64,000 nt of DNA from an uncultured virus (IMG/VR IMGVR_UViG_3300002231_000542) (IMGVR_UViG_3300002231_000542:1-64000), one strand, 5' to 3'; positions 1 to 29,075 are shown, counted from the stretch's first letter. The notes: generated by a model not told the origin, from the letters alone. A program made the numbers and translations.

Positions 1-1969
1 CCTCTACCTTACAGAGGACACTATTACCCTTCTGCGTAGACGAAAACCCTAGCCCACTGAGTTGGTTATCTGATCTTGTTGTCTTCAATTTAGACCCTAG
101 TACTTCAAACACCTTCCTATACTCACGTAAATCTTCATTTAGGAACTCATTAAAGAATCCTCTAGCTGGTCCATTATTAGTACACCCTTCCAGCATGAAG
201 AAGTAGTGCTTATTACCTGTTTCCTCACCATCCCAGTGATTTGGTGAATTCATAACTACTGATACCTTCTGGAAATTATTAGTATTTAATCCCCACACTT
301 CTTTGGAAGCTGAAGTAGACGGTAGCGACTTTAAGAACTTTAAACCATCTATCTTAGAGAAGTCAAACGTAGCGACAGCTACGCTCTTATTGTTCGCTAC
401 AGCTTTCTCGTAGTGGAAGTTGTGAATAACTCCGTCATACTCAATTTCTACCTCAAACCCAACATCAGTAGTCTCTCGCTTGTTATAATTCTTGACAAAT
501 ACCTCATAAGTACCTTCAAGCATATCTGCCTTATTTGTCCATACTATATTCTCTACTGGTGTACGTGAATTTCTAGCACCCGCATTCATATCAACATCTA
601 ACTGACCTGTCGTCCAGCTACCCTTATTATTGAAGTAAATATGAGCTCCACCCGCAGGTTCGTACACGTGGATGTCTAGATCATCATAATTATACCATGC
701 TAAAGAAATCCTAAGGACACCCTCTACTTTACCTCCGGCGCTCTTTACCCTTTCCTTAATAGAATCAGTCACTTCTCCTTTATACGCCCATGAGAAGTTA
801 TTCTTCCATTTCAGTATGTTGGGAGCATCTGGGTATTCAGGAGCAACTAAGCTCACCATATGATTACTATGTCTGTTCTCTAGTAGCACCTCTAGCGACT
901 CAGCTTTAGGTAAAATATCACTGATAAAAGTATTAATATCAACTTCATCTACTTTATCAAGCTTCTTGATGTCCACCTGAACCTCTGCCTTCATCTCATC
1001 AAAGACATTCATAGCCTTTTTAGCAGTCCTGTTAGCATGAAGAATGTTGTTAATAGTAATATCCTCTAATACAGCATACCGTCTCTGTAGAGAATCAGCT
1101 ATACCCAACTCTTCCACCTTCTCCTCAGCTTTAGCAATCATACCTTTAGTTATGAGAGCTGTTGGTCTCTTATAGTTAGTAGGAGCTACTTTAGATTCAA
1201 ACATCTTAACAGCGTCATCTAACTCCACCTCACTAGAGATGTCTACAAGAAGAGTACCGATTACTGTATTCCTGATTCCTGGAGTAGTTGAGTTCTTCCA
1301 ACAGAAATTATTCCTCTCCTCATCAGTTTCCAGAGTATCATACTCTATCTTAGCTTTTATAAAGCCTTCAACAAAACTTTTATGCTCAGCTCCTCTGTAA
1401 AGAGAGTTTTGCTCGATCAGCTCTACAACAGTATCAGCGGCTTCAAGAGATATTTCCTCTAGACCTCTCTTCAGCACATCCTTGTTACTACTACGTCGTG
1501 ATAATATACCCCCTATGTCTGCACCTCTTCTAGTAAACTCTGAAGGTAGCTCAAAATAAAAATGACTGTACGTCACTACATCGTCACCCTTACTTAATGC
1601 ATGACTAACGTCTGTACCTAGCTTCTTCTCCGTATGTAAGAAGATACTACTAATAGGTTGAGACTTTACTAGGTCAGCCATAGTATCAACAACTTCTTGA
1701 TAGAAGTTGTCTACTTCTATATCCCAGATAGAAACTAATTTGTTATTAACAATAGAAACCACATTACCACATGATCTAATGAACTGTTTACAGCAACTAC
1801 AATCATGCTCAGTGTTCTCTTTGTAAATTGGATTAGTTCCTTCAGGGAAGCTTTTAAGATATATATCCCACATATCATCCTTGCTTACTCCTGTTCTGTA
1901 TAAGCCTGACTTAGACATTACACTAAACTGCTTACTAATTGCTTCTTTGAGTACAATAAATTCACTCAT
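1..1969 (-). CDS. Large phage protein (>650 aa, runs off the left edge) with an N-terminal HDCSCC motif and a YfaP/DUF2135-like segment
   Basis: Not in the ORF track because it has no stop in the window. Manual translation from ATG 1969 (RBS GGAGGAG): MSEFIVLKEAISKQF...EHDCSCCKQFIR...LRISLAWYNYDDLDIHVYEP...LDVDMNAG...PVENIVW, open to base 1. Confidence 0.8.
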   Translation of the reverse strand, partial: MSEFIVLKEAISKQFSVMSKSGLYRTGVSKDDMWDIYLKSFPEGTNPIYKENTEHDCSCCKQFIRSCGNVVSIVNNKLVSIWDIEVDNFYQEVVDTMADLVKSQPISSIFLHTEKKLGTDVSHALSKGDDVVTYSHFYFELPSEFTRRGADIGGILSRRSSNKDVLKRGLEEISLEAADTVVELIEQNSLYRGAEHKSFVEGFIKAKIEYDTLETDEERNNFCWKNSTTPGIRNTVIGTLLVDISSEVELDDAVKMFESKVAPTNYKRPTALITKGMIAKAEEKVEELGIADSLQRRYAVLEDITINNILHANRTAKKAMNVFDEMKAEVQVDIKKLDKVDEVDINTFISDILPKAESLEVLLENRHSNHMVSLVAPEYPDAPNILKWKNNFSWAYKGEVTDSIKERVKSAGGKVEGVLRISLAWYNYDDLDIHVYEPAGGAHIYFNNKGSWTTGQLDVDMNAGARNSRTPVENIVWTNKADMLEGTYEVFVKNYNKRETTDVGFEVEIEYDGVIHNFHYEKAVANNKSVAVATFDFSKIDGLKFLKSLPSTSASKEVWGLNTNNFQKVSVVMNSPNHWDGEETGNKHYFFMLEGCTNNGPARGFFNEFLNEDLREYRKVFEVLGSKLKTTRSDNQLSGLGFSSTQKGNSVLCKVE

Positions 1970-2169
1970 AACTACTCCTCCTCTATTATTTACTATTACA
2001 TTATTACTAAATTTAGTACCTCAGACCGTCGAAAATGGCTTTTCAGCCATTTTTATTACATAAGGCATACTGTACTATACCTTATACAATAAAAATGGTT
2101 AAAATGGTGTTTCTAGTAATTCTGCCTCTGACGGGATCATAGTCCACGCGCTTAAAACAACTCACCATA

Positions 2170-2770
2170 TCATTTACCCTCTTTCTTCAAAGTAAATCTG
2201 CCTGTTATAGAGTTGAACATACCAGTAGCTTCTACAGTGACATCTTCTACTACTACGTCACCATATAACTTAGAAGTTACCTTTAATTATAGAAGTACCT
2301 TTAATTACTACGTTTCCGAAGGCTTTAGCTTTATCACACATAACACCCTCGTCCTGTAGAGTTGCACTGCCTCCTATAACGGTATTATCAGTCATCATAC
2401 CTCTACCAGTCACTAAAGAATCTCCTTTAGCTTTAGCATTCTTCTCTAATAGACCTGATTCTTCTATTAGAGCATTCCCGCAAGCTTTGGCGTTGTCCTT
2501 TAGGACTCCACCGAGCACGTTCTTATCAGTACTTCCCCACACAGTAGCGTTACCAGATACTCTGGAGTTATCCATAACTACTCCTCCAGGATATATCCAA
2601 CAATTACCCTTCTGTGAGAGGTTGTGCTCCCCAGAGACACAGCCTCCATCATCGCCTGTACATACATCTGCAAACGACTTGAGAGCTACTATCCTAAGTA
2701 CTACCTTACCTTCATGTTTAAAGCTTTGTCTAGTAACTTTATATTTTAACTCAGCTTTTTTTCTGAACAT
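2170..2770 (-). CDS. Phage hexapeptide-repeat (left-handed beta-helix-like) protein; one apparent frameshift near 2272
   Basis: RIVALKSFADVCTGDDGG...NLSQKGNCWI followed by xxNAxV/xxxAxA hexapeptides. Removing one T at GNF* extends the frame to ...TLKKEGK* at 2170. Confidence 0.65.
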
Positions 2771-2800
2771 AAGTTATTCTCCTTTAATTAGATGATTCAC

Positions 2801-3571
2801 TTAGACCACGTTACCCTCTTCATCATATNGGTATTCCGCACACTCTATNNAATCCTNCACTTCTTCATAGCTAGTGAGGTNGTTATACTCCTGTTCTAGT
2901 ANATCAGCTAGAAAATCCTCAGCCTCTTCAACAAATGAAATAAACTGAGTCTCTATGTCATCTACAGTCAACGTACTTAGGTGTTCATCCCCTCTCTTTA
3001 TTATAAATTTAGGAATACAACTACGCCCATAACTGTCCGTAGCAGTTTCCTCAAACTCAGTCGAGTCTAAAAAACCTCCTTGATTAGTAATATATAATGA
3101 ATTACTAATCTGTTCATAAACTTCATCTGGGAGTTTGTAAACATCTAAGTGCGTATTGACCCTCAGGTAGTCAAAGAATATATCTTGATTCTCCAATAGG
3201 GCTCCTGTAAACCCAACACTCCATGGACTACTTTCGTATTCTATCTCATCATATATTATACCATATCTATCAGAGATGACTTCATGGAAGTAATCTCTTT
3301 CGTTTCCCCAGTCGTAGTCTACATTGATATAAATATTCTCTTCAACTACCCTCTTCTGAACATCCTCGCGTAGTTCCCTAAACAAGAACGTAGGTACAGG
3401 AATTGGAGGCAGCTCAAAGAGCGTACCTTGTTGATGTTCATTATCTATCTCTGGTTCTGTCTCTTCAACTTCTTCAGTATCTATGTACTCCATAAAATTT
3501 GCTCCTTTAGCTTTAGCATTCTTCTCAGAAATAATTAACTCTTCTAAAGCCTCAACGTGCTCCTTTCTCAA
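2801..3571 (-). CDS. Acidic hypothetical protein with C-terminal EY.YLTS.E.V...YDEEG motif
   Basis: 256-aa ORF; this C-terminal motif recurs in phage/ICE proteins. Function unknown. Confidence 0.6.
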   Translation of the reverse strand: MRKEHVEALEELIISEKNAKAKGANFMEYIDTEEVEETEPEIDNEHQQGTLFELPPIPVPTFLFRELREDVQKRVVEENIYINVDYDWGNERDYFHEVISDRYGIIYDEIEYESSPWSVGFTGALLENQDIFFDYLRVNTHLDVYKLPDEVYEQISNSLYITNQGGFLDSTEFEETATDSYGRSCIPKFIIKRGDEHLSTLTVDDIETQFISFVEEAEDFLADXLEQEYNXLTSYEEVXDXIECAEYXYDEEGNVV

Positions 3572-3932
3572 TTAATATACTGTCAGCTTCTATTAGCCTA
3601 ACGAGTAACTTGAGACTAGCTCCTTTAGCTAGCTCTACCTTCTCTTTGATCTTAACGATCTCGAGTTTATGAGTTAGGTCTATAAGACCTAACTCTAGGT
3701 CTTTATAGACTTTATCCTCAGCTATGGCTGCCTCAATAGCCTTTATTGTTGGGGCTTTACTATTAGCTTCCTGAAGCTCTAAGAACTTCACGGTGTACAA
3801 CTCAGCTTTCTTCTGGTCAGCAACGAAGTTTGCTGACGCTAAATTATATATTGCCGCTGCTGTGTCATTCAATGCCACAGCAAGGTTATCTGGGTGCTCT
3901 TCGATATCTTTTAATAGTTCTTCTCTAGTCAT
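3552..3932 (-). CDS. Helical protein, possible UvsY-like paralog
   Basis: 126 aa, RBS AGGAGAG. KAPTIKAIEAAI resembles RPTVKEIESET in 24692..25180. Confidence 0.5.
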   Translation of the reverse strand: MTREELLKDIEEHPDNLAVALNDTAAAIYNLASANFVADQKKAELYTVKFLELQEANSKAPTIKAIEAAIAEDKVYKDLELGLIDLTHKLEIVKIKEKVELAKGASLKLLVRLIEADSILIEKGAR

Positions 3933-3946
3933 GATTACTCTCCTTT

Positions 3947-4852
3947 TTAGTTAGTACTTCGTTTAATATTGATAATTTGCACGTCTGAGTATTTCTTAAC
4001 TCTCACGTTATTATGAACTGAGACAATATCATCTAAATTTATCTCAGCAGATATGATAACTCCTTCTCGTCTTTTTAAAGACGAAACTGCGTACCAGTAA
4101 CTACCAAAGTGGAAGCCCTCTCCACAATTAACAGACTGGTCTCTAAGTACGTCCAAGCTACCAGACGAACCCACAGAATACATATGTTTCCCTGTATAAA
4201 AATCTGTTAGGTCTTTTCTAACTGCTTTATAGAATACTCCTTTATTATTATTATTTAGAACAACACCAGTTTGCAGAAGAATATTTAGTGCTGTAAATGC
4301 GTCTTTTCCGAACGCATCAAAATTATGACCTATTTCAGAATTAGAACCTACCTTAGAATTAGAACCTACCTTAAAATTAGAACCTATTTTAGAATTATAA
4401 CCTATTTCAGAATTATAACCTATTTTAGAATTATGACCTATTTTAGAATTATNACCTATTTTAGAATTATGACCTATTTTAGAATCATAGCCTATTTCAG
4501 AATTATGACCTATTTTAGAATTAGAACCTATTTCAGAATTAGAACCTATTTCAGAATCATGACCTATTTCAGAATTATAACCTATTTCAGAATTATGACC
4601 TATTTCAGAATTATAACCTATTCTAGAATCAGAACCTATTTCAGAATTATAACCTATTCTAGAATCAGAACCTATTTCAGAATTAGAACCTATTTTAGAA
4701 TTAGAACCTATTTCAGAATTAGAACCTAGTGTAATACTTCTTTTACTAAGTTCAGGTAACAACTCTTCTTGTGATCCTTCAAACAACTTCCAGTCTTGCG
4801 TCGAATTGCACCAAAGTTTAATTTTCAATATTTTCAATATTTTCTTAGCCAT
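3947..4852 (-). CDS. Hexapeptide-repeat (LbH-like) protein with a C-terminal phage domain (YKAVRKD...CGEGFH)
   Basis: About 22 tandem (S/Y/H)(N/D)S(E/K/R)IG units. RBS AGGAGAGG before ATG 4852. Confidence 0.75.
   Translation of the reverse strand: MAKKILKILKIKLWCNSTQDWKLFEGSQEELLPELSKRSITLGSNSEIGSNSKIGSNSEIGSDSRIGYNSEIGSDSRIGYNSEIGHNSEIGYNSEIGHDSEIGSNSEIGSNSKIGHNSEIGYDSKIGHNSKIGXNSKIGHNSKIGYNSEIGYNSKIGSNFKVGSNSKVGSNSEIGHNFDAFGKDAFTALNILLQTGVVLNNNNKGVFYKAVRKDLTDFYTGKHMYSVGSSGSLDVLRDQSVNCGEGFHFGSYWYAVSSLKRREGVIISAEINLDDIVSVHNNVRVKKYSDVQIINIKRSTN
4322..4728. repeat. 18-bp coding tandem repeat, ~22 copies
   Basis: Unit GAACCTATTTCAGAATTA with variants, head-to-tail with no spacers. Confidence 0.95.
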
Positions 4853-4912
4853 TATTCCTCTCCTTGTAAGTAACATTCACGCTCTAAACAATCAGCGTGT
4901 CTGAGACAGTTA

Positions 4913-5128
4913 TCATACGAGCACACTGTAGCGCGTAGTGACTTCTTTACATACTCTTTTATCATAAGAACAGACCAAACTATTATCAATGAGTCTACTC
5001 TTCGTTAAACGACTAGCTATGTAGAGAGGTGGTGTTGTTTCTATCCTCCCAACTCTATAGGCTTTTCGCCTATTCTTAGTAGTCATCCCCCACTCTACCA
5101 CCACTTTTATTTCTTTCTGCTCAATCAT
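4913..5128 (-). CDS. Hypothetical protein
   Basis: 71-aa ORF in line with neighbours. Confidence 0.4.
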   Translation of the reverse strand: MIEQKEIKVVVEWGMTTKNRRKAYRVGRIETTPPLYIASRLTKSRLIDNSLVCSYDKRVCKEVTTRYSVLV

Positions 5129-6168: not shown

Positions 6169-6301
6169 GAGTAGCTGTATGTTACTGGAACGTAGAAAGT
6201 CAGTAGGAGACACACCTCCTACTGCTTGATAGTACTACCCTGCATATTATATAATAGAGGGCGTGCGAACATATAGAACACCCCTCTCAAAACAGTTAAT
6301 C

Positions 6302-6655
6302 CTAGCAATCACCACTCAGCGCTGCTATTACATCATTAAGGAAACAGACGATTCCCGCTTTCTCGTTAATACCCTCACCCCAATCTATGAGGTTTCTCAC
6401 TCTCTTAAGAGATGCGATACTAACTTGATGATCTGTTGCAACAGTGTCATTATCTCTTGCCCCATCTTCACAGGTGCACTCTGTTTCAGCATCCCATACA
6501 TCCTCTACTTCTTCTACTGCTTCTTCCACTGCTTCTTCCACAACTTCTATAACACGTCTTTTGAGCCTGCTAACAATACCCTCAACTTCAACTCGTATTG
6601 CACCTTCGATCTCATCATTGAGATTCACTTCCTGCTCTGTCGTAAATACTGGCAT
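6302..6655 (-). CDS. Acidic hypothetical protein, last gene behind the Ubl operon
   Basis: 117 aa, RBS AAGGAGGAG, VEEA repeats. Confidence 0.65.
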   Translation of the reverse strand: MPVFTTEQEVNLNDEIEGAIRVEVEGIVSRLKRRVIEVVEEAVEEAVEEVEDVWDAETECTCEDGARDNDTVATDHQVSIASLKRVRNLIDWGEGINEKAGIVCFLNDVIAALSGDC

Positions 6656-6698
6656 TTTACTCCTCCTTTAGGTTATTACTTCGTTAGTAAAATTACTT

Positions 6699-8186
6699 CT
6701 AAGCTTGTAATACTATGTAGTTGTTCTCATCTAATACGAACTGATCGTTTGGATCAGCATCTAATGCAGGGTCATTAATCCCCACTAGACTCTCAGATGG
6801 AATTTCCTCTATTACTTCTTGGGGCAGGTATGGTATAGTTAACCCGTCGTATGGGTACTCTCTCCGTGGCTCGCCCTCAAGTCTAAACTCACTCAATAAA
6901 CCGCCTAACTGGTCTCCTGGAGTTGCGTTCTCTAAGAATTGGACAATTATATTAGCTAACGAGACGTAGTCTCGTTGCGCCATTACGTCCGTAAACAAGT
7001 CCGCATTCTGACCGTAACAAGGGTCTCCCCCAGACCACACATGAGGTGCTTGCTGTCCTGTTAGTCTGTCAGTCATGTTATAAAACTTGTTACCTTCAGG
7101 AAAATCACTATCATCTACTGTTATGTAGAAGCGTCCAATGTTGTACACTTCGTCATCACCAATGTAACTACATTTTATGTCATTGGTGAAGAAACCCAGT
7201 TTCCCCTTGTTATCTATGATAACCTTTCTGATCTGGGGTAATCTATTGATGGTTGCAAAGTCTTTTTTATACTTCTCACCATTTACGTCTCTATCTAATC
7301 TCTGTATAATATGCTGAGCCTCTAGATACTTTCGCTTCTCTTTTGTAAGAGCTAACTCCAGCTCTTTACATCTCTGTTCAGATAAAGATGCCTCAGCCGT
7401 GTACCGCTCTAACAACTTATTCGAGTTACCTAAACATTTATCTATAAAAAGTTGCTCACAATCAACTTCTTGTTCTTCAAATTTATCCTCTAACACAGCA
7501 TTAAGTATCATCTCAAACACTTTGTTAGATTGTTCTAATGTAAACACATCAGAGTTGAATACATTAAACAAAATGTATAGGTGGTTCCCTTCAATGAGTT
7601 CTGCTAGTACTACTCCACTCTGAGGGTCTTTAAAGACCCTGCCATACTGTGTAGGACTGATTGTCAGCAGGTTAGTCTTGATACCTGCTATTTCTTTAGG
7701 TTGTCTATCATACTCTGGTAAGGGTATAGCAACATCACAGTTCCTGATGTAGAACATACCCGCGTTTCGTCCCAACTGCCCAGATTCTTTCCTGGTACCT
7801 TCATTTAAAATAACATTCTTACACAACTTCTGCGTAAAAGCATGAAGTGTGTTTAGAAGAACATTCTTTTGATGAAATGCAGAAAATATCTTACCGTCAC
7901 TAGTGTCCCAATGGGGCACATAGCATTTATATTTGAACTCTTGCTCTTCTGCAACCTCTTCGACTACTTCTCTAAGCTCTACATGTATCACGCCTGCCTG
8001 AGTAGAGCCCTCTACTTCAACAATATTTACAGCTTTAGAATCTATAGCACTCAAAAGTGACTCTTTACTGACTAGTCCTCTACAGGCCCCATTGCTGGTA
8101 AACCTCTGTAGTATAGCAAGTACTTCAGGAGCATTATCTAACTTCCCAAAGTCACTATGTCCTACTGAATACACAACAGACATCAC
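6699..8186 (-). CDS. Coiled-coil protein with a C-terminal prokaryotic E2-like (ubiquitin-conjugating) domain
   Basis: Central heptad region (SEQRCKELELALTKEKRKYLEAQ), then QAPHVWSGGDPCYGQ...DYVSLANIIVQFLE. This matches the E2 (H)PH/N-x(5-7)-C-L/Y-G signature plus following helices. Adjacent to Ubl, E1 and JAB genes. Confidence 0.65.
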   Translation of the reverse strand: MMSVVYSVGHSDFGKLDNAPEVLAILQRFTSNGACRGLVSKESLLSAIDSKAVNIVEVEGSTQAGVIHVELREVVEEVAEEQEFKYKCYVPHWDTSDGKIFSAFHQKNVLLNTLHAFTQKLCKNVILNEGTRKESGQLGRNAGMFYIRNCDVAIPLPEYDRQPKEIAGIKTNLLTISPTQYGRVFKDPQSGVVLAELIEGNHLYILFNVFNSDVFTLEQSNKVFEMILNAVLEDKFEEQEVDCEQLFIDKCLGNSNKLLERYTAEASLSEQRCKELELALTKEKRKYLEAQHIIQRLDRDVNGEKYKKDFATINRLPQIRKVIIDNKGKLGFFTNDIKCSYIGDDEVYNIGRFYITVDDSDFPEGNKFYNMTDRLTGQQAPHVWSGGDPCYGQNADLFTDVMAQRDYVSLANIIVQFLENATPGDQLGGLLSEFRLEGEPRREYPYDGLTIPYLPQEVIEEIPSESLVGINDPALDADPNDQFVLDENNYIVLQA

Positions 8187-8213
8187 ATTTCTCCTTTTAA
8201 TATGTTTTATTAT

Positions 8214-8255
8214 AGTCAGGAGGGTTACTAATCGTGGGATTTAGCCCTCCTGACT
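8214..8255. terminator. GC-rich hairpin between the Ubl and E2-like genes
   Basis: AGTCAGGAGGG...CCCTCCTGACT, an 11-bp perfect inverted repeat. Confidence 0.55.
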
Positions 8256-8265
8256 CACCTACGTA

Positions 8266-8505
8266 TTACTGCCCAGAGTCGCTTGGCTTTAGGCACATGA
8301 TCTGCTCACCAGAGTTAACTCTACTACTGATAGGAACTGTGCGTCCATCAATAGTTATGTTGAACTGACTCCAGTCAACCTTGGTATCCATAAAGTTATT
8401 GTCTACCTGATCTAGCGCGTCCTGAACTGTTGCTCCAGCTAATAGGCTCACTCTATGAGTGAAAGCTCCAGGCTTCAGCACCTCTACTATTATATTGCTA
8501 CTCAT
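8266..8505 (-). CDS. Ubiquitin-like (beta-grasp) protein
   Basis: 79 aa with beta-grasp pattern: IIVEVL / RVSL / ATVQDAL helix / ITIDG / SRVNSGEQIMCL. C-terminus is ...DSGQ. RBS AGGAGG. Confidence 0.8.
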   Translation of the reverse strand: MSSNIIVEVLKPGAFTHRVSLLAGATVQDALDQVDNNFMDTKVDWSQFNITIDGRTVPISSRVNSGEQIMCLKPSDSGQ

Positions 8506-8550
8506 AATTACTACCTCCTATTTTGATTAATTAATCGTTAATAAAATATC

Positions 8551-9261
8551 CTAATATTTATACGTCCAAATATTAGGAGAACCTAGATCATAGATTAGTA
8601 TATCTTCTGGAAGAATATCCCACTCCCCTTCCATCTTATAATACATAACCCATTTCATGAAAAAATTGATCATCCAAAACTTAGCAAAGGTGGCTGTGTT
8701 ACTTATCATCACCTTACTACTGCACAGAGCCATCTCTGTAGCTGACTCTGCTTCCTCGTCGGAATAAGTGGCTGTATCCTTCCAACTCGCCACCGCACGA
8801 GGATTACATGGGTTAATAGAGTAAACTCTACCTTCCATAGTAGATAACCTCTGCTCTATTACTAACTTGACTTTTATGTTGTTAGTACAAGCATCTACGA
8901 CAGCGTGTCTTGATGACATACTGTCTGTACATATGAATACAATGCCTGAAAACTTAGTATTCTCATCTACTTCGCAGTCATGAGGTATAGCCTTCATCTC
9001 AGCTTGCCTCTCTACTTCTAGTACTAACGCCTCTACCTTCTTCATTCCTACGTGCTCCCGGCAGTATTCTTGGTTATCAAGATTGTGTCCTTCGACTCTA
9101 TCCATATCATATAGATGTATAGTCTCAACACCCATCTTCGCCACCTCCAGTGCTACTTTTGAACCCACAGCACCACATCCGACGACATGAACATGTAGTC
9201 CTTCTTTGTTGAATTCGTTCATGCTAATGAACTTATACTGCCTAGCGTGACTTAATGCCAT
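8551..9261 (-). CDS. E1-like ThiF-family adenylyltransferase
   Basis: VVGCGAVGS nucleotide-binding loop, YDMDRVEGHNLDNQ, VGMKKVEAL, ICTDS..SR. Candidate thioester Cys in EMALCSSK; no Zn CxxC pairs. Confidence 0.9.
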   Translation of the reverse strand: MALSHARQYKFISMNEFNKEGLHVHVVGCGAVGSKVALEVAKMGVETIHLYDMDRVEGHNLDNQEYCREHVGMKKVEALVLEVERQAEMKAIPHDCEVDENTKFSGIVFICTDSMSSRHAVVDACTNNIKVKLVIEQRLSTMEGRVYSINPCNPRAVASWKDTATYSDEEAESATEMALCSSKVMISNTATFAKFWMINFFMKWVMYYKMEGEWDILPEDILIYDLGSPNIWTYKY

Positions 9262-9291
9262 TTGAACACCCCTTTTACTCTTTTTTATTTA

Positions 9292-10243
9292 CTACGTAAG
9301 CCATTTTGTGTCACCTATTTCATCCTCAATGATGTTAAACCCTTTATATATATCTTCTAACTCAGTTAAGGGCAACAGTTCTAACTCTTGCTTACTGTAA
9401 AGATTAAACTCACTCTCTAGAATTAAAGTTATTAGACTAGAGCATAGTTCCTGATAATGAACCACATTTAAGTCTAACTGATCACCTGTTTTAGCAGGTA
9501 GTCTGACTACCTTTCCCATGAGTAACTTCTCTTTTAAATTATAAAGCTCTTCAGGTTCCTTCTGAGCTAGATCAATAGTAGTGAACTTACCCGGAGCTAT
9601 CTTATATATTTCCGTGATAAGTTCATCTTTCCATTCTAACATATAATCTTTATGAGTACTGCCGACCGTAATAGGTCTCTCACGAATACACTCTTTGAGT
9701 TCCTTCTCCCAAAAAGCTCTTCGTTCTTCATCGAATTGGACTGTAAGTCCAATGTCTAAGTAAACAATCCCCTTCTTATAATCAAAGAAATCTATGTTGA
9801 AATCCTCTCTCTTATTAACTATCAACCTAACATAGTAAGGAACACAGCCATCATTCCTCTCTTTGAAATCATCCTCATCAACACTTGATGGGGCTGTAGA
9901 CATATTTACATGAGAATGCCCATGAGCCCTGGTTGTGTTGGTAATTTTAGCAGCTTTCTCCTTACCAAACCGATTTTCTATTCTCTTCTGGTACTCTGCA
10001 TGAAACTCCTCTGATATATGAACAGATGCCATTGAGACGTATTGTGGAGGGAGCATCACATTAGTGATAACATACACGTTATCCTCCTGAGCTTCTACTG
10101 TCATGTAGAAACCAACTTCAGTCATCCTGCATATGAGTTATTAATACAATATCATCATATGCAGCTTTAGTTATCTCCACCGAAGGAAAATCCTCTTTCT
10201 TTGGTGGCTTCAAATATCTAAACTTACTTTTACTTTTAACCAT
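9292..10243 (-). CDS. JAB/JAMM (Mov34) metallopeptidase; apparent +1 error near 10125
   Basis: TEVGFY (catalytic Glu) and HGHSHVNMSTAPSSVD (= HxH-x7-S-x2-D). The likely true start is ATG 10243 (RBS AAGGAGAG), which joins the 277-aa ORF if one G is removed from CAGGATG. Confidence 0.85.
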
Positions 10244-10275
10244 GTTTACTCTCCTTTTTAATAAATCGTAAAAAC

Positions 10276-10304
10276 ATACTAACATAAATAAAAATTAAAG
10301 TCAA
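10276..10304 (-). promoter_or_regulatory. Sigma70-type promoter of the JAB-E1-Ubl-E2 operon
   Basis: TTGACT-17 bp-TAGTAT with extended -10 TG. Confidence 0.75.
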
Positions 10305-10307
10305 GTG

Positions 10308-11633
10308 TTATTTTAAATATGCTAAAGTATTTTTACGTACCTCTTCTAATGTAATGTCTGCGAGCAGCTCACCATTCTCAAACACTGGGTATAAATCTTC
10401 AGTAAACCTACCTGATTTAGAACGTTTACTTTCATCACCTATTGGACTCTTGAATACAGCTCTAGCTTCACCATCAATAGTTACCTCAGAGCACTTGTAT
10501 GCAAATGCATGAATATCTCTATCTAATCTCTGTAAAAGAGAGCCACCCATACCGAATGCGATATTATCGGCTGAGTACCCATCACTCTCTAACACGAAGA
10601 GAATCTTCTTGATGCTGTCAAAATCAACACCATCACCTTGAAGCACTCTGACATTGTTAAGTACTCTATACCCTTTNTCATTAATCTCATGCCCAAAGGC
10701 GTCGTCTAAGTCTNTTACGCATTCCTTGACAGTGATCGTAGGATCACCAGAATCAGGTCTCACGACCAGCATTCCTTTGAAATCTACCACATCGTCATAT
10801 AGCTCGTCACCCCAGATATTCTGACATGCATTCTCAATATCATAACTATCAGATACACACGCCACAAGTGGTGAGTCTTTATATTGAACTAACATGTTCT
10901 TAAAAGCTTTAGCCTCATTCTCTCGACCCCATGAAGTAATCGTAGAATGCTCTGACGCCGGAATTGAAAAGCTTGCCATATCTTCATGGTAATACTTTTT
11001 AGCGTAGACATTGGCTACCATGGTATCAGAACCTTTGAAGTTCACTAGGTGAGCCATACTACCAATCCCAGCAGACTCAGTGCTTGAGACACCTCTGAAC
11101 CCAAAGCAATGAAGCTTGAGCTCTATATCTTTAGGAGTACCAGTTTTACGAAGGTACTCCATTATTACCTTTCTAATCATTCTAGACTGGGTAGCTACAG
11201 TACATGGATACCATACCTGAACTAGTAGTGTCTCTAGGTAGTTAGTTAACCAGAAACACTCAGGGTCTGTGTTCTCCACTGTAATTAGAGGCTTAGAAGG
11301 AGTATGCACTGAACCTTCCTTTACTGCGCATATCTTGATAGGTAGTTTCCCACCGTGTTCTTTTAAGATATATCTCCAACCTTCCTCGTAGAACATACCT
11401 TTACCCATGTGAGCATCTATAAGCAGCTTGGCTTCCTTAATTTTATCTTCAGTGACTACTACACCTTCTAGATACCGCTTGATCAGATATTGTAGTCCGA
11501 AGAATGTGATATCAACCATTCTTCTAGCTCTTGCCTCGAAATAACTATAGACTGTTTCACATTTTTCTGGATACAGCCTATAATGAGATGTCTTATAACT
11601 ATCTGACATCAGTAAGATATTACCTGTTCCCAT
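10308..11633 (-). CDS. nadV: Nicotinamide phosphoribosyltransferase (NAMPT)
   Basis: DSYKTSHY, TNYLETLLVQVWYP, FGFRGVSS, SIPASEHS, VSDSYD, VRPDSGDP, LQGDG, FGMGG. Confidence 0.95.
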   Translation of the reverse strand: MGTGNILLMSDSYKTSHYRLYPEKCETVYSYFEARARRMVDITFFGLQYLIKRYLEGVVVTEDKIKEAKLLIDAHMGKGMFYEEGWRYILKEHGGKLPIKICAVKEGSVHTPSKPLITVENTDPECFWLTNYLETLLVQVWYPCTVATQSRMIRKVIMEYLRKTGTPKDIELKLHCFGFRGVSSTESAGIGSMAHLVNFKGSDTMVANVYAKKYYHEDMASFSIPASEHSTITSWGRENEAKAFKNMLVQYKDSPLVACVSDSYDIENACQNIWGDELYDDVVDFKGMLVVRPDSGDPTITVKECVXDLDDAFGHEINXKGYRVLNNVRVLQGDGVDFDSIKKILFVLESDGYSADNIAFGMGGSLLQRLDRDIHAFAYKCSEVTIDGEARAVFKSPIGDESKRSKSGRFTEDLYPVFENGELLADITLEEVRKNTLAYLK

Positions 11634-11706
11634 TATTTATTCTCCTTTTGTTTTCTTTTTCTTCATCTTTTTCTTTGCTAAAAATATTTACTTCTAAATT
11701 CTTAAA

Positions 11707-12621
11707 TTATTTCCTTAACCCCCTCCTTACTTTTATTTTCCATATATCTACTATCATAGGTCTGTGTGATTCCATCACACATCCTATTCTATTCCATATA
11801 TCATCTAAATCATACCATTGAACATCATCCAGATCATCATTAGATTCTACTCTACCAAACTGGTACCATCCATAAAACAGAGATGTCACCAATTGATCCT
11901 CGCATCCTCTATATCTCCAGTCATCGCACTTGTAGGACGAGACGTAGTTGAGTCCGTCTACCTCTACATTAGCTTCTTCCATAACCTCTCTTCTACATAG
12001 AGCCTCCACTGTTTCGTAAACATCATGGATGCCCCCTATAAGTCTAAGTTCTCCATCACCGAACTTAGTTCCTAGAAGTACCTGAATTCTGCCCTCATGT
12101 TCTCTAAGAACAGCTACGTCAACAGCATGATACATTACTGGGTACCTATTCTGAGTAGAGTAAATAACCCCTTTCCGGAATAGGTCTGAGTTGATAACTT
12201 CCTGTCCCACTTTCGATCTCATATTAGTAGCAGAAATGTCTGGATGTGCATTAATTTCTAATGTACACGTTCCATGCTTACCATTATATGACTCTAATGA
12301 GTTATCCCTTCCACCATAAATTACAGCAGGTTTACCAGGGTAAACTCTCTGTAATTGCTCATCAATGTCATTTGACCAGTCACTATCACACTTGTAATCC
12401 GGTAAAGGAGTAATCATAGCGTGGGGGTATAGACTACTTAGTAGTCTATACCTAGTTTCATAATCAAGGGGGTGCCTTCTAGTTCCTTTAGTACTAGAAA
12501 CACATACTAATATAACAATTCTCTCATGGAGCTTACTTACTTCATTAATTAATAGCTTATGTCCATATGATAGGCAATGACTTTGAAACCTTCCTATAAT
12601 AACACCTACTGAATCATTCAT
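11707..12621 (-). CDS. nadM: Bifunctional NMN adenylyltransferase / Nudix (ADP-ribose) hydrolase
   Basis: IGRFQ...GH, ISATNMR, Nudix box GG...REVMEEANV, DWRYR. Confidence 0.9.
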   Translation of the reverse strand: MNDSVGVIIGRFQSHCLSYGHKLLINEVSKLHERIVILVCVSSTKGTRRHPLDYETRYRLLSSLYPHAMITPLPDYKCDSDWSNDIDEQLQRVYPGKPAVIYGGRDNSLESYNGKHGTCTLEINAHPDISATNMRSKVGQEVINSDLFRKGVIYSTQNRYPVMYHAVDVAVLREHEGRIQVLLGTKFGDGELRLIGGIHDVYETVEALCRREVMEEANVEVDGLNYVSSYKCDDWRYRGCEDQLVTSLFYGWYQFGRVESNDDLDDVQWYDLDDIWNRIGCVMESHRPMIVDIWKIKVRRGLRK

Positions 12622-12708
12622 GGTGTCTCCTTTTTAATAAAGTTATTAAATACTTAACTAATATAAACACTTTAGCATAATTAAAAATAAATAGCAAGCT
12701 TTATTTTA
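12616..12708 (-). repeat. 93-bp direct repeat copy 2 (promoter + RBS for nadM-nadV)
   Basis: Matches 5881..5973. Confidence 0.9.
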
Positions 12709-12714
12709 TTTTAT

Positions 12715-14440
12715 TTAATCTAACTCATTAATAAACTCTTCCTCTGTATATATCTTAATCCCCTTCTTCTTAGCTTTACCTATCTTACCTGATGTCTTAC
12801 TATTAGTAATAAAGTAATTAGCTTTAGTAAGACTAACCTGCTCTAGCTGGTAATGCTCACAGAATTCTTTCTTATTACCAAACTGTAAAGAACCGCTGAT
12901 ACACACTTTGATCCTACTAACCTCTTCAATCTCATCTACAATATATGACTTAAAGTATTCATACTGTTTCTGAATGTAATCTTTATTCAAGTCTAACGAC
13001 TTCTCTACATTAACGGGGAGTGTTATAGAGACTTTATCATTCTTATGAGCTTCTACTTTCTTACTACTACGCCTACCCAAACTAGGTAGATTCAACACCC
13101 AGAGGAACTCCCAATAACTCAATCCCATATTTTTTAATTTTTTTTCTAACTTTTCCAAAAATTCATTTACCAATTTTATATAATGAGAATTGTCCTCTGA
13201 CACTTTAGAAATCTCAAGTACATCCTCTAGTCGCGGACACTCCTCTGTGAGAAACCGCCTAATATATGACTCACCAAAACCTTTTACGTCACCTATGATT
13301 TCTTTTAGTCTCTGTATCTGCTCTACTCTCTTAGGTAGGCAGTCAGGATTAGGGCACACTTTATCTACTGTATTAATTGTAGAGTGTTCAACTTCAGTAC
13401 CACACTCTGGACAGACTTCCAGTGGTATATCTATAGAGTTACTATTATCTATAAGCGTAATCATCTTAGGGATCACCTCACCCGCTCTAGCTATCTCTAT
13501 CGTAGTACCTTTACCTAGCTTGTTCGCTACTACATTATTCCAGTTATGTAGAGTACACTTACCTATGTCAGCACCAGCTAGATATACAGGGGAAAACACT
13601 GCTACTGGAGTTATAGCACCACCAGCTCCCGCTTGCCAGATAATGTCCTCTATTACGACCTCGGCGGTCTCACCTAGGAACTTATAAGCAAACTCCTCAT
13701 TGTTAGCATCAGTAAGTACTACACCGTCTATAGCAGCAGTGCAATCCTCTTTAGCTGTCTCAAATACCTCCAGTAGTTTCTCTGGAGTAGGGTTCTGTAG
13801 TCTATAATAAGTAGGTACCTCAAATCCCGCCCCCTTTATCTTACGGAGCATTAGCTCCTTATGGAGAGTAGCTTCTTCACCTACAACTACAGTATAACCT
13901 ACAAACTTAATAGTCTTAATATCTTCATTTATGTCTTTCCTATTAAGTATACCTGCAGCTACATTCCTATTAGTAGTCTTATCTTTGGAGACTATTTCAC
14001 CTCGAACAGCCCATAGAGGCACGTCACTTTTGAACATAGCTATTCTATGAAAATTAATTTCTTCGATAAGTACTAACTTGTCAGTTACATCTCTGCCTGT
14101 TTTGCCATCACCTCTAGTGAGAGCTTTCCATAGTTCACCATACTTGAAATATAGTACCACAGAAGAACCATCTAGTTTAGGTGTGACGGTGTACTCTTTC
14201 TGAGGCACTTCATCAGGATGATTTATCTTACTTAGTGACCCGATAGGTTGTTCGGCTAAATGTTTGAAATCAGCTAGTGCATCTATAGCTCCCCAACCAG
14301 TTGAGGAGAGTATCCAATGGTTGGGGTCTTTAGACCGTAGATCATCTATCAATGCGTCAAACTGAGCATCAGTTATGATAGGCGTACCAACGTAGTATGC
14401 TGTAGCCGCTTTTAATTATTTGTTCTGTTGTACTAGTCAT
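12715..14440 (-). CDS. ligA: NAD-dependent DNA ligase; apparent frameshift near 14412
   Basis: KLDG, TRGDG, VRGEI, IDGVV, AYKF, TLHN, GEVIP, CPECG..CPNPDC and a BRCT-like tail. N-terminal YYVGTPIITDAQFD continues upstream to ATG 14440. Confidence 0.92.
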
Positions 14441-24193: not shown

Positions 24194-24286
24194 AGAAGTA
24201 CTTTAGCGGGGGAGGAAGTCGAATCCTCTACCTTCAGAATTTGAACCTGATGAGCTACCGTTGCTCAACCCCGCTAAAGTACTTCT
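24194..24286 (-). tRNA. Met/initiator-like tRNA body with CAA anticodon inside an 18-bp inverted repeat; no CCA
   Basis: AGCGGGG-TTGAGCAACGGTAGCTC-A-TCAGG-ttCAAat-TCTGA-AGGTA-GAGGATTCGACTTCCTC-CCCCGCT. Confidence 0.6.
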
Positions 24287-24294
24287 GTTATGCT

Positions 24295-24370
24295 TGGCTC
24301 TGACGACACGGCTCGAACGTGTACTCTTCGGATTAACAATCCACTGCTTTACCAATTAAGCTACGTCAGA
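24295..24370 (-). tRNA. trnN: tRNA-Asn(GUU)
   Basis: TCTGACG/CGTCAGA + GCCA; loop ttGTTaa; T arm ACACGTTCGAGCCGTGT. Confidence 0.85.
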
Positions 24371-24375
24371 ATATT

Positions 24376-24450
24376 TGGTTCACTGAGATAGATTTTAANT
24401 ATCGACCTCTCGATTATCAGTCAAGTGCTCTGTCGCTGAGCTACTAGTGA
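24376..24450 (-). tRNA. trnI: tRNA-Ile(GAU) with atypical T loop
   Basis: D arm GCTCAG..GAGC, CTTGA-ctGATaa-TCGAG, ACCA end; the T loop reads TTAAAAT. Confidence 0.7.
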
Positions 24451-24469
24451 ACATGTTATTTTATAACTG

Positions 24470-24544
24470 TAACCGATGAAGTGACTTGAACCCTCAACAT
24501 TCTGCTTACAAGGTAGGCATTCTAGTCAGTTAAACTACATCAGC
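24470..24544 (-). tRNA. tRNA-Thr(UGU)-like, degenerate, no CCA
   Basis: GCTGATG/CATCGGT, loop ctTGTaa, GGTTCAAG; stem mismatches. Confidence 0.6.
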
Positions 24545-24553
24545 ATTTTAATT

Positions 24554-24630
24554 TGGTCTTAGCGAGAGGATTTGAACCTCTGACCCCCTGCTCCCAAGGC
24601 AGGTGCGCTACCAGACTGCGCTACGCTAAG
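24554..24630 (-). tRNA. trnP: tRNA-Pro(UGG)
   Basis: Canonical cloverleaf: CTTAGCG/CGCTAAG-ACCA, CCTGC-ctTGGga-GCAGG, AGAGGTTCAAATCCTCT. Confidence 0.92.
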
Positions 24631-26616: not shown

Positions 26617-29075
26617 TTATATTACTTCTAATTCGTACCAGTTCCTACCGATACAAATTTCTATATCTAATTTCACACCATTCATCAATGGTAATTGTCT
26701 TAACATCTCTTCTTCTATTATATCTAATGATTCCTCTAAATGTTCATCTGGTATATAGAACGAGAGATCATCATGAATATTTAATACTGGATGTAGATAA
26801 GGTTTTACCTTGTTTTCTAGCTAACTGAGCCAACCTGACCCATACCCATAACTACTATATCACTCGCTCCACCCTGTATAGGTGAGTTAATAATCTGATT
26901 ATGAGCAATAGGAGCTCTTCGTCGTCTACCTGTTAATGACTCTACGTACCCATGAGTTCTATACAATATACTCACTTTCTTCTGCCACGCTAAAACTTTA
27001 GGAAACTCAGCCCAGAATAAGTCACATAGGTACTTTGACTCATTTATAGTAATACCTAATAACTGCGATACCTTGTAATGACTACAACCATAGAATAGAG
27101 GAAATACTAATGAATTCTTAATTCCTTTTCTAAATTTCTTTAAAGCATCATCAGTTAAATCTTCAAACTTTTCTACTCCAGCCGCATAAGGGTAAAGCTG
27201 AGCTGTCTTTATAGCCCATTCCATATGAATATCAGATTCTACAATCTTGTACTCACCTGTAACCATAGCTATTACTCTAGCCTCTAACTGTCCATAATCA
27301 CAAGCTACAAACCAGTGTCCTTTTGGAGCTGTGATCATCTTTCTAACATGCTTGTTAGCTCTACTAGGGAAGTTCTGTATGTTAGGTTTATCAGAACTAA
27401 ACCTACCGGTAGCAGTAAACATTGAGTTAAAATTAGGATGTAAGTATCCTTCGTACATATGTGTAGCTACTGGTTCTATATAAGTAGACCTTAGCTTATC
27501 ATGTTTCCTGAATTTAGGCAACAACTTCGCTAATGGATTACCACGTTTAGCGTACTGTCTTAGAATCTCATCATCAAATTTCCATGAACTATCCTTAGTA
27601 GTACCTAAACATTCTTCTTTGTAGTAATCTCTAAATATCTTAGTTAGAGCCGCTGTACTTCCATACTTAAACTTATTCCTATTAGCAGCTTTATACGCTA
27701 TAACTTCTGGTATAGCTTCTATCTGTTCTACTAACGGATTGATTTTACTCATTATGTCTTCGTAAAGTCTAGCTTGTTCTTCTTGGTCTACTAAAACTCC
27801 CCTAGACTCTGTAACTGCTAAGGTCTTTGAGACCTCTACATGATGGTCTATCAGTTCTATTAACTTATCATTATCTTTAATATCATCTATTATATCTAAT
27901 TGCTTTTTATATAACAAATACGTATACTTAGTATCCCTTGCATTATATAATAAAAGTTTCTTAATAGGTTGAGCTTCTAAATTTTTAATATCTATATCAG
28001 ATAACTCTTTCAATTTGAAACCAAGTCGTTCCTGGCATAAAGCATCAAGACCTAATAACGATACTTCTTTACAAGCTCTCTCATCTATAATGTAGGCTTG
28101 AGTCATAGTATCCATCCAATCTGTATCTAGGATACTCTCACCATAATACTTCATTAACCATGACATCTCAAATTTAACATTATGTGCTATCTTTAAAACA
28201 TCTTTACGATTGAAAAACTCCTCAAGCGTGTTATGTACTTGCTTTGCTAATAGCTTATTTTGGCTTATATGGTCTACGAGGATGCCCATATGGGCATCTT
28301 CTCGACTAAACGCAATACTTAGTATACGCGCGTTTTTTTCAAAGGCATATAAGCCTGTCGTCTCTATATCTATAGCTACAGGTTCATCCGACGATAGAAA
28401 CTCTTGTAGTTCTTCTATCGTCGGATTCAGATTAAAATTATCATCAGTTGGAACAACTACCTCTGGAACTTCAGAGAGTGTTTCATGAATAAAATTTAAA
28501 TCTCGAACCGTGATAGCATCTAGATCAGTATAGTCTCTTTTTTGTTCTTCATGCTGATCTAGTATCTCTGTCATAGAATGAATAGGTATAAACCAAAACG
28601 TATGGTCTTTAATCTTACATGGAAACTTTCTACCTCGTTGCCACATTATAAGATTTCTACCTATCATCCAATCTAGGGGTGCTTTCCCTAAACCAACTAC
28701 TATTTTTGGTTTAGATAAATAAATATCATTTTCTACATTAGTCCTACAGCAGTCAACTACATTCTTATCAGGCACTATCTGTTTAAAAGTAGTAGAACAA
28801 AGTTCTATATTACCGACTCTAATTGCAACATCTTTTAATGAAGTGCCTCGTTTTAGTTTATCTAGTAAATTACCTTCAATTCCAAACTGACCTCCTAAGA
28901 TGTATACTTCAGGACTCTTACTACCCCTTGGAAGGGTAAGACAACTTAATTCCGCATTACGTTCCTTTACACGTCTATACCGACAAACCTTACAGCCAAA
29001 CTTCTTAGCTACCTTAGCTTGTCGTACTTTCTTAGTTGACTTCTTAGGTCTTTTTTTATAATTTAGAAATGCCAT
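26617..29075 (-). CDS. polA: Family A DNA polymerase with N-terminal UDG-like domain and 3'-5' exonuclease; two apparent +1 errors near 26800-26840
   Basis: DIETTG, AHNVKFE, DTM, YNARD, TATGRFSS, DYGQLEAR, R...K...F..FYG, NSPIQG. Motif C (NIHDD) lies in the corrected frame, which ends at 26617. Confidence 0.92.

Follow-up and report, generated by a model that had tools for sequence, protein, structure and literature searches.

A predicted ubiquitin-like conjugation cassette (JAB, E1, Ubl, and E2-like protein) in a large tailed phage, with relatives in other phages and in bacteria of the candidate phyla radiation

The stretch of uncultured viral DNA considered here (IMGVR_UViG_3300002231_000542:1-64000, hereafter the window) comprises the opening 64 kb of a linear IMG/VR virus record of 78,469 bp, for which CheckV estimates a completeness of 62%, and its source is a large tailed phage. 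An operon at 6302-10304 on its minus strand contains genes for a JAB/JAMM (MPN+) peptidase, a minimal E1 enzyme, a ubiquitin-like protein (Ubl), and an E2-like protein. Judged by their sequences, these four genes form one conserved cassette, a member of a large, undescribed family found in phages and in bacteria of the candidate phyla radiation (CPR). From sequence comparison and structural models, the cassette probably encodes a phage E1-to-E2 thioester relay for attaching the Ubl to proteins, in which the JAB peptidase would serve in both processing and deconjugation. The observed basis for this reading is fourfold: the folds or families of the four proteins, their conserved catalytic residues, conserved gene linkage, and a record without sulfur-transfer genes.

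In order of transcription, the operon consists of a promoter-like site, JAB, E1, Ubl, the E2-like gene, and an acidic open reading frame (ORF). An initial annotation of the window had described four contiguous, co-oriented genes followed by an acidic ORF, and all five were located on the minus strand. Strong Shine-Dalgarno sites precede each of the five.

The E1 (8551-9261, minus strand) is a 236-aa enzyme of minimal ThiF/MoeB type. It scores 79.7 bits against Pfam ThiF (E 2.5e-22; cut-off 28.1), which places it above the curated cut-off of PF00899, the E1/ThiF/MoeB adenylyltransferase superfamily. A profile of the E1 family matches 63 solved chains at E ≤ 1e-5, including those of MccB, the NEDD8 and ubiquitin E1s, ThiF, MoeB, Cap2, and BubCD. 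The enzyme has neither a rhodanese domain nor a UFD domain. Its GxGxxG motif (G28/G30/G33), D52, D54, D113, R138, and C180 are invariant, both in the 12 aligned sequences (12/12) and in the viral homologues (48/48). Cys180 is the candidate catalytic cysteine, and we take it to be the equivalent of the MoeB/ThiF active-site cysteine. The original description of an E1/ThiF enzyme with a candidate thioester cysteine is thus upheld.

The Ubl (8266-8505, minus strand) has 79 aa and ends in Ser-Gly-Gln (...DSGQ). Its predicted structure in the Atlas (pLDDT 0.75) aligns with template-modeling (TM) scores of 0.79-0.81 to clusters whose members are 100% ThiS or Ub-RnfH, and it matches a profile of the small genes that lie 3′ of E1 in related loci (26.7 bits, E 1.9e-9 in a 7-protein database). 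A beta-grasp fold, on which the initial annotation had staked its reading, is therefore supported by the model and the profile. Matches to the RnfH and SAMP2 models were weak, and jackhmmer started from the window Ubl recovered nothing among the loci; a seed from the Ubl of locus L005 did yield relatives. Multi-domain relatives reach 40.3 bits against Pfam ThiS (cut-off 22.5). In many of the relatives, a Gly is followed by one or two final residues (KGN, KGA, KGNx), others finish with ...SN, ...ADSAF, or ...NNA, and one subgroup ends without Gly. In the window Ubl the Gly is penultimate, and its exposure would require processing. Four loci have Ubls with at least two beta-grasp domains or with an extension after KGN (L011 9237-9851, L021 5740-6408, L028 5710-6798, and L023 8404-9141). 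By analogy, these resemble a polyubiquitin-like precursor that would require cleavage by the JAB peptidase.

The JAB gene encodes about 316 aa when read through (9292-10243, minus strand), from an ATG at 10243 with the ribosome-binding site AAAGGAG. It is split in the record into a 41-codon ORF for the N-terminal segment (10118-10243, minus strand), which uses that ATG, and a 277-codon ORF (9292-10125, minus strand), which begins at the catalytic Glu (M-T-E-V-G...). The JAMM motif claimed for this gene, E...HxHx7Sx2D, is real; it occurs in the 277-codon ORF as E3, H70-S-H72, seven residues, S80, two residues, and D83, and these E/H/H/S/D residues are invariant in 39/39 aligned homologues and in 47/47 homologues from viral loci. 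However, the gene that carries the motif is frameshifted in this record. The JAB homologues of eight related loci are single ORFs with an extra N-terminal segment that aligns with the C-terminal half of the 41-codon ORF, and in 36 distinct motif-bearing homologues the HxH lies between residues 83 and 184, as opposed to residue 70 in the window ORF. Since it is the 41-codon ORF upstream, in a different frame, that supplies the first ~40 residues of the JAB domain, a +1 break can be placed at ~10121 in the record. A four-letter reading at the junction (GACT as D) fuses the two ORFs with homologue-like spacing. In addition, an independent contig from a public run (X1, a microbial mat metagenome) spans 9915-10400 and has one base fewer at 10121, being identical otherwise; depth in this run is only 3.47 at 10121, and X1 is possibly the same sample as the source of the record. 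Ambiguous bases in the record, seen as X in translations (e.g., at 3947-4876 and 10308-11633), suggest that it is of draft quality. The most likely explanation for the break is a sequencing error, i.e., one extra base at 10121 in an intact gene that starts at ATG 10243. Programmed +1 frameshifting at GAC-TGA was considered and rejected, as the site offers no slippery re-pairing and the independent contig lacks the base.

Library models scarcely reach this JAB family. Pfam Prok-JAB (PF14464) gave sub-threshold scores of 15.5 and 17.6 bits (cut-off 25), the read-through protein matched nothing among the family models at E ≤ 1e-4, and a profile of the JAB family found nothing meaningful among PDB sequences, the top match being gasdermin-D (E 0.069). 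The closest ESM-Atlas clusters to the JAB protein are viral, with Prok-JAB assigned to 13-22% of their members (score 0.94).

The E2-like protein (6699-8183, minus strand) has 494 aa from its likely start at ATG 8183; the ORF list gives 495 aa from GTG 8186. It is composed of a variable, beta-rich N-terminal region, a long helix (residues 243-298), and a UBC-like C-terminal domain (~300-445). An exhaustive HMMER search with this protein yielded 579 relatives at E ≤ 1e-3, with 82 at E ≤ 1e-10, and conservation extends over residues 160-440. In an alignment of 107 sequences, G351, N370, and C390 are invariant, P381, H382, G387, and G392 are near-invariant, and the family consensus around the cysteine reads APHVxxxGxxCLGN. 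The corresponding motif of the window protein, PHVWSGGDPCYG, is thus real and family-wide. The cysteine is invariant and the histidine near-invariant across >100 divergent sequences (20-25% identity); within the viral loci, C390 is present in 30/31 and H382 in 28/31. Both the alignment and the structural model place H382 eight residues before C390, directly ahead of a helix at 392-403.

The structure of the E2-like protein was modeled with AlphaFold2 on the 107-sequence alignment, which gave a pLDDT of 79 overall and >90 over most of residues 300-440; a single-sequence run gave 34. In the alignment-based model, residues 300-445 match E2 enzymes across the whole UBC domain, and the matches listed by Foldseek against the PDB are all E2 or UEV proteins, with a best E of 1.3e-2 and a probability ≤0.96. 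Sequence searches were largely silent. Pfam UQ_con and Prok-E2 matched neither the protein at E ≤ 0.1 nor 35 homologues at E ≤ 1e-3, UQ_con had no match in the whole record at E ≤ 10, and the family profile drew only coiled-coil noise from PDB sequences. Megablast of the operon and tblastn of the 495-aa protein against phages gave no match, nor did tblastn of a relative (P0012) against phages and plasmids. A word-indexed protein search returned the query itself only, and a single-protein scan of viral contigs found nothing. The proposal of an E2-like protein therefore stands in part: the motif is family-wide and the C-terminal domain matches E2 enzymes, but UQ_con and Prok-E2 do not recognize it and, as weighed below, a non-catalytic fold scores as well.

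A survey of gene neighborhoods, which the initial annotation had put forward as a check, found that the cassette recurs in 48 loci of IMG/VR and in 13 loci of metagenome-assembled genomes (MAGs). The viral loci were collected by scanning IMG/VR with the E1 alignment; they represent 37 distinct E1 sequences, and many of the contigs are 100-220 kb long. JAB adjoins E1 in 47 of the 48. By hidden Markov models, all four genes are present in 24/48 loci and E1, JAB, and Ubl in 20 more, while the remainder have E2-like, JAB, and E1 genes (two loci), E1 and JAB (one), or E1 alone (one). A BLAST cluster over 20 viral loci, possibly the same 20 that have E1, JAB, and Ubl only, is made up of 477-580-aa proteins encoded directly upstream of JAB and bearing a PH[IL]...C[LW]G motif. 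The E2-like profile matches six of these proteins with an hhalign probability of 95% (E 3.9e-8), and on this profile evidence the cluster is a divergent form of the E2-like protein. Gene order is usually (Ubl-)E2-JAB-E1(-Ubl), with E2-JAB-E1-Ubl in most relatives of the cassette, as opposed to JAB-E1-Ubl-E2 in the window. Tandem E2-like paralogues (locus L005) and giant E2-like forms of 1149-1264 aa also occur.

Neighboring genes in the phages were surveyed through 111 ORFs of at least 130 aa from 24 of the 48 viral loci. At least one neighbor belonging to a DNA/RNA-metabolism PHROG was found in 18/24 loci, and a tail gene in 1/24. The former include SbcC/D, helicases, DnaB, single-stranded DNA-binding protein (SSB), dUTPase, ribonucleotide reductase (RNR), ligase, and reverse transcriptase. 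As a side observation, one viral subgroup has an 18-locus BLAST cluster of 367-433-aa proteins encoded 0.3-2.4 kb downstream of E1, and 4/4 members scanned are reverse transcriptases (RVT_1; L038 5942-7090, L049 5975-7261, L051 7993-9285, and L053 5922-7100). No reverse transcriptase occurs near the window cassette. In a 206-kb viral contig with tandem E2-like genes (L005), the stretch just upstream of the cassette (687-4985) encodes a Thg1-like tRNA-His guanylyltransferase and an RlaP RNA-repair nucleotidyltransferase, along with an Apyc1-like metallo-beta-lactamase of the anti-Pycsar family (3.8e-24).

Species-representative genomes, scanned with a sub-alignment, supplied the 13 MAG loci. 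Nine are from CPR bacteria (Saccharibacteria, Paceibacterota, Parcubacteria, and Doudnabacteria), and the four without a CPR label are from Flavobacteriaceae, an unclassified bacterium, Thermoanaerobaculia, and Obscuribacterales. E2-like, JAB, and E1 genes are consecutive in 7/13 of these loci, and two of the three genes are present in 2/13. The neighbors of the CPR cassettes are housekeeping genes, namely those for RNase Y, trigger factor, seryl-tRNA synthetase (SerRS), DNA polymerase III gamma/tau, LepA, MurJ, Fpg, and endonuclease V. Three of the CPR loci encode a TrmB-type transcriptional regulator upstream on the opposite strand (L009 960-1754, L011 4217-5014, and L013 4061-4843), which may be devoted to control of the bacterial form of the cassette.

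More distant E1 relatives exist in GenBank phages, including Xanthomonas jumbo phages, Flavobacterium FpV4-like phages, and Bacteroides phages. The two such loci examined, from PhiXhv-12 (L001) and FpV4 (L002), have no E2-like gene of the type in the window-family alignment. In both phages the E1 relative is annotated as "thiamine biosynthesis protein" and has unannotated genes beside it; gp51 of FpV4 has a weak Prok-JAB match (E 0.0076), and a 70-aa ORF follows the E1 in PhiXhv-12. These loci possibly represent additional cassettes, of greater divergence, in phages amenable to cultivation.

From the observations above we infer the chemical steps of a conjugation pathway, a role for the N-terminal region of the E2-like protein, and a target. 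The JAB metalloprotease would begin by trimming the residue that follows the penultimate Gly of the Ubl (...Ser-Gly|Gln). Using ATP, the minimal E1 would then adenylate the exposed Gly and hold the Ubl on Cys180 as a thioester, from which it would be handed to Cys390 in the UBC-like domain of the 494-aa protein. The variable N-terminal region and long helix of that protein would pick the target, in the manner of a built-in E3, and the Ubl would be placed on a target lysine, a mark that the JAB peptidase could later reverse. The variability of the N-terminal regions, the tandem paralogues, and the giant forms suggest that target choice, too, falls to the E2-like protein. Since the cassette sits in a replication and nucleotide-metabolism module in most carrier phages, its action is expected during the early or middle stage of infection, with host or phage proteins as substrates, rather than in virion assembly. 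Host defense factors or competing phage proteins, the candidates put forward by the initial annotation, may be among the targets.

Several points weigh against a conjugation pathway of this kind. None of Pfam, NCBIfam, PHROG, and PADLOC gives an above-threshold match for the E2-like, JAB, or Ubl protein, and Prok-JAB is reached at E ≤ 0.01 by only 1/39 of the JAB homologues. For the E2-like domain, the non-catalytic RWD fold scores as well as the E2 fold. The Asn of the canonical E2 HPN motif is Val or Ile in this family (Val in the window), and in the window copy three near-invariant positions deviate from the consensus (N422 to T, W434 to F, and P435 to R). In 4/13 MAG loci, the E2-like gene has no JAB or E1 nearby. 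If the frameshift is real, this copy of the cassette may be without its protease. Finally, the record is 62% complete, so sulfur-transfer genes may lie elsewhere, and sulfur-carrier pathways can likewise contain trios of JAB, E1, and Ubl, including the JAB, E1, and ThiS/MoaD trios of sulfur assimilation, according to the accessible text of Iyer 2006 (PMC1779556).

These last points bear on the rival that survives best, although we regard it as unlikely. The Ubl would here be a ThiS/MoaD-type sulfur carrier, converted by the E1 to a thiocarboxylate that provides sulfur for the modification of tRNA, DNA, or a cofactor, with the JAB peptidase only maturing the carrier and the 494-aa protein acting as a scaffold or sulfur acceptor. 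In size and layout the E1 is closest to ThiF/MoeB, and its top NCBIfam matches are ThiF models, albeit far under their cut-offs. The nearest structural clusters of the Ubl are ThiS, MoaD, and RnfH, and the phage has tRNAs as well as tRNA-modifying and tRNA-repair enzymes. In contrast, a search of the 78-kb record for rhodanese and cysteine desulfurase found neither, in agreement with the initial claim that sulfur-transfer genes are lacking, and the E1 has no rhodanese domain of its own. A sulfur relay also has no need of the tightly linked fourth gene, whose UBC-like product has an invariant Cys and a near-invariant upstream His. Tandem paralogues and giant versions of that gene fit a diversification of targets.

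A second possibility, which we consider rather improbable, is that the E2-like protein is a non-catalytic adaptor of RWD/UEV type. The E1 would then conjugate the Ubl directly, as in sampylation or urmylation, or the Ubl would be a non-covalent chaperone like the tail-assembly Ubl of lambda. The tie between the RWD and E2 folds fits this option. It does not account for an invariant Cys at the E2 catalytic position with a near-invariant His eight residues upstream, conserved over more than 100 sequences, and a tail chaperone sits poorly with a location in the replication module, given the 18/24 loci with a DNA/RNA-metabolism neighbor and the single one with a tail gene. The least probable of the three rivals is that this copy is a decaying passenger, in which case the frameshift at 10121 and the three replaced consensus residues of the E2-like C-terminus would be signs of a non-functional remnant, whereas the independent contig (at low depth) lacks the extra base and gives a single JAB ORF, the ambiguous bases of the record suggest draft quality, and the other ORFs are intact, with strong ribosome-binding sites and all catalytic residues kept.

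A phage conjugation system of the kind favored here has its closest parallel in Bil. Types I and II of Bil (class 6d of Iyer 2006) use separate proteins for the same four roles, with BilA as Ubl, BilB as E2, BilC as JAB, and BilD as E1. Likewise, the Cys is kept in both E1 and E2, and the JAB is able to process and deconjugate. Bil conjugates its Ubl to the central tail fiber of phages, as described in the accessible portions of 10.1101/2023.09.04.556158, PMC11601603, and PMC11601596. The differences begin with location, since Bil is found in bacterial defense islands and the present cassette in phages and CPR bacteria. As far as the available text of PMC1779556 describes them, class 6d E2s lack the His before the Cys and have one after it instead, whereas the upstream His is near-invariant here. 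Type I Bil Ubls mostly have two beta-grasp domains, according to the accessible part of PMC11601603, compared with one in the window. In addition, the present E2-like protein has an N-terminal region of ~300 residues with a long helix. With PADLOC, the best 25 of 34 models matching the E1 were all E1-E2 (Cap2), and there were no matches for the JAB, Ubl, and E2-like proteins in a release whose inclusion of Bil models is unconfirmed. Because the E2 keeps the classical upstream His, the Ubl is single-domain, and the PADLOC E1 models shown are all E1-E2, the cassette is not classed as a member of Bil, although it would work like one.

Type II CBASS (anti-phage signaling based on cyclic oligonucleotides) is another relative through Cap2 and Cap3. 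The Rossmann part of the E1 matches PADLOC E1-E2 models (1e-13) and solved Cap2, and a JAB partner is shared, as the predicted thioester chemistry would be. In contrast, the present E1 and E2 are unfused, there is no CD-NTase or effector, and the cassette encodes a beta-grasp Ubl of its own, whereas in CBASS it is the CD-NTase whose C-terminus becomes conjugated. The Bub systems (6E/DUF6527) likewise combine E1, E2, Ubl, and a peptidase for protein conjugation, and the E1 profile has solved BubCD among its matches. Bub chemistry proceeds via oxyesters on a Tyr of E1 and a Ser of E2, with no catalytic Cys and with DUF6527 as a serine protease, according to the accessible text of PMC11601596; here, both cysteines are conserved, and no DUF6527 match was found among the operon proteins.

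Two further comparisons involve mobile DNA. The PRTRC operons of plasmids and integrative elements (TIGR03734-03742) pair a ThiF-related E1 with JAB-, E2-, and Ubl-like partners, but the window E1 reaches just 33.7 bits against PRTRC_ThiF (cut-off 144.75), no other PRTRC model matched, and ParB is absent. The tail-assembly Ubl TAPI and the JAB-NlpC protein TAPK of lambda and T1 are the one phage-borne Ubl/JAB pair that the accessible text of Iyer 2006 (PMC1779556) names. Unlike the present cassette, that pair has no E1 or E2, belongs to a tail module, and has its Ubl fused to a C-terminal domain. In a literature search, which was thin on subscription journals, no account of a cassette of E1, E2, JAB, and Ubl encoded by a phage was found.

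The regulatory signals of the operon are less distinct. A sigma-70-like site, TTGACT-17-TAGTAT (10304-10276, minus strand), begins 4 nt past the stop codon of the upstream NAMPT gene, agrees with the consensus at 9/12 positions, and has a TG before its -10 hexamer. It is a plausible operon promoter from its sequence; the site noted initially is certainly there, but the region has no excess of sites of this kind (14 found vs 24.4 expected from shuffles). A stem-loop between the Ubl and E2-like genes (8214-8255, minus strand) rests on a GC-rich base of 10 perfect pairs, with additional pairing inside, and TATAAT comes after it. Its predicted stability is -23.3 kcal/mol (z -3.30), and 0/200 shuffles were as stable. 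This structure may be an attenuator, a processing site, or a transcript stabilizer that sets the Ubl:E2 ratio in favor of Ubl. The acidic ORF named at the outset was found at 6302-6655 on the minus strand (117 aa, strong ribosome-binding site) and is a possible fifth member of the operon; searches of the family libraries gave no match for it, and no relative exists among the surveyed loci. Of the terminator proposed beyond this ORF, two hairpins remain (~6256-6287 and 6198-6227, minus strand; z -1.39), but they have no clean U-tract and a terminator scan of the region flagged nothing downstream of the ORF, which makes them a weak candidate.

The phage origin of the operon, also part of the first description, is borne out by the replication module, tRNAs, and tail genes of the window. 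PHROG matches include DNA polymerase, clamp, clamp loader, primase, two helicases, RNR, NAD-dependent ligase, SbcCD, UvsX, SSB, tRNA nucleotidyltransferase, and tail and baseplate proteins, and three tRNA genes are clustered at 24203-24630. Nearly all genes of the window, including the operon, are on the minus strand. A conserved protein at 2-1969 shares 54% identity with proteins encoded by Klebsiella and Proteus myoviruses with genomes of ~145 kb, a distant relationship. Directly upstream of the operon are genes for NAMPT (10308-11633), a fused NMNAT/Nudix protein (11707-12621), and an NAD-dependent DNA ligase (12715-14352), all on the minus strand and together amounting to an NAD+ module (10308-14352). 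The NMNAT/Nudix and NAMPT pair also adjoins the cassette in viral locus L031.

Two other genes of the window deserve mention. An ORF at 3947-4876 (minus strand) encodes a hexapeptide-repeat, left-handed beta-helix protein with GSNSEIG-type repeats (Pfam Hexapep, 1.8e-28), and its C-terminal part matches a piece of a RIIB-like PHROG. At 29056-31299 (minus strand), a few kb from the tRNA cluster, a 747-aa protein contains two nucleotidyltransferase regions, the C-terminal one being a tRNA nucleotidyltransferase of the CCA-adding type.

Viruses of eukaryotes exploit ubiquitin. To our knowledge, the only prokaryotic systems in which Ubl conjugation has been demonstrated to date are those of bacterial defense against phages (type II CBASS, Bil, and Bub) and archaeal ones of the SAMP type. 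More broadly, and with less confidence than we place in the conjugation pathway itself, we tentatively suggest that large phages widely encode a ubiquitination-like cascade with a fast-evolving E2/E3 hybrid. Such a cascade would tag host proteins (e.g., those of defense or DNA repair) or proteins for replication and recombination of the phage itself in early or mid infection, as a viral mirror of Bil, and in CPR bacteria it would be a chromosomal protein-modification system. The CPR copies, situated amid housekeeping genes, offer a second, cellular context for the cassette. The cassette is compact, with an E1 of 236 aa and a tag of 79 aa among its four gene products, and its predicted chemistry is accessible to standard thioester and conjugate assays. 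If the conjugation pathway is correct, bacterial viruses too would use covalent protein tagging, with the full kit carried beside replication genes in dozens of distinct large-phage contigs.

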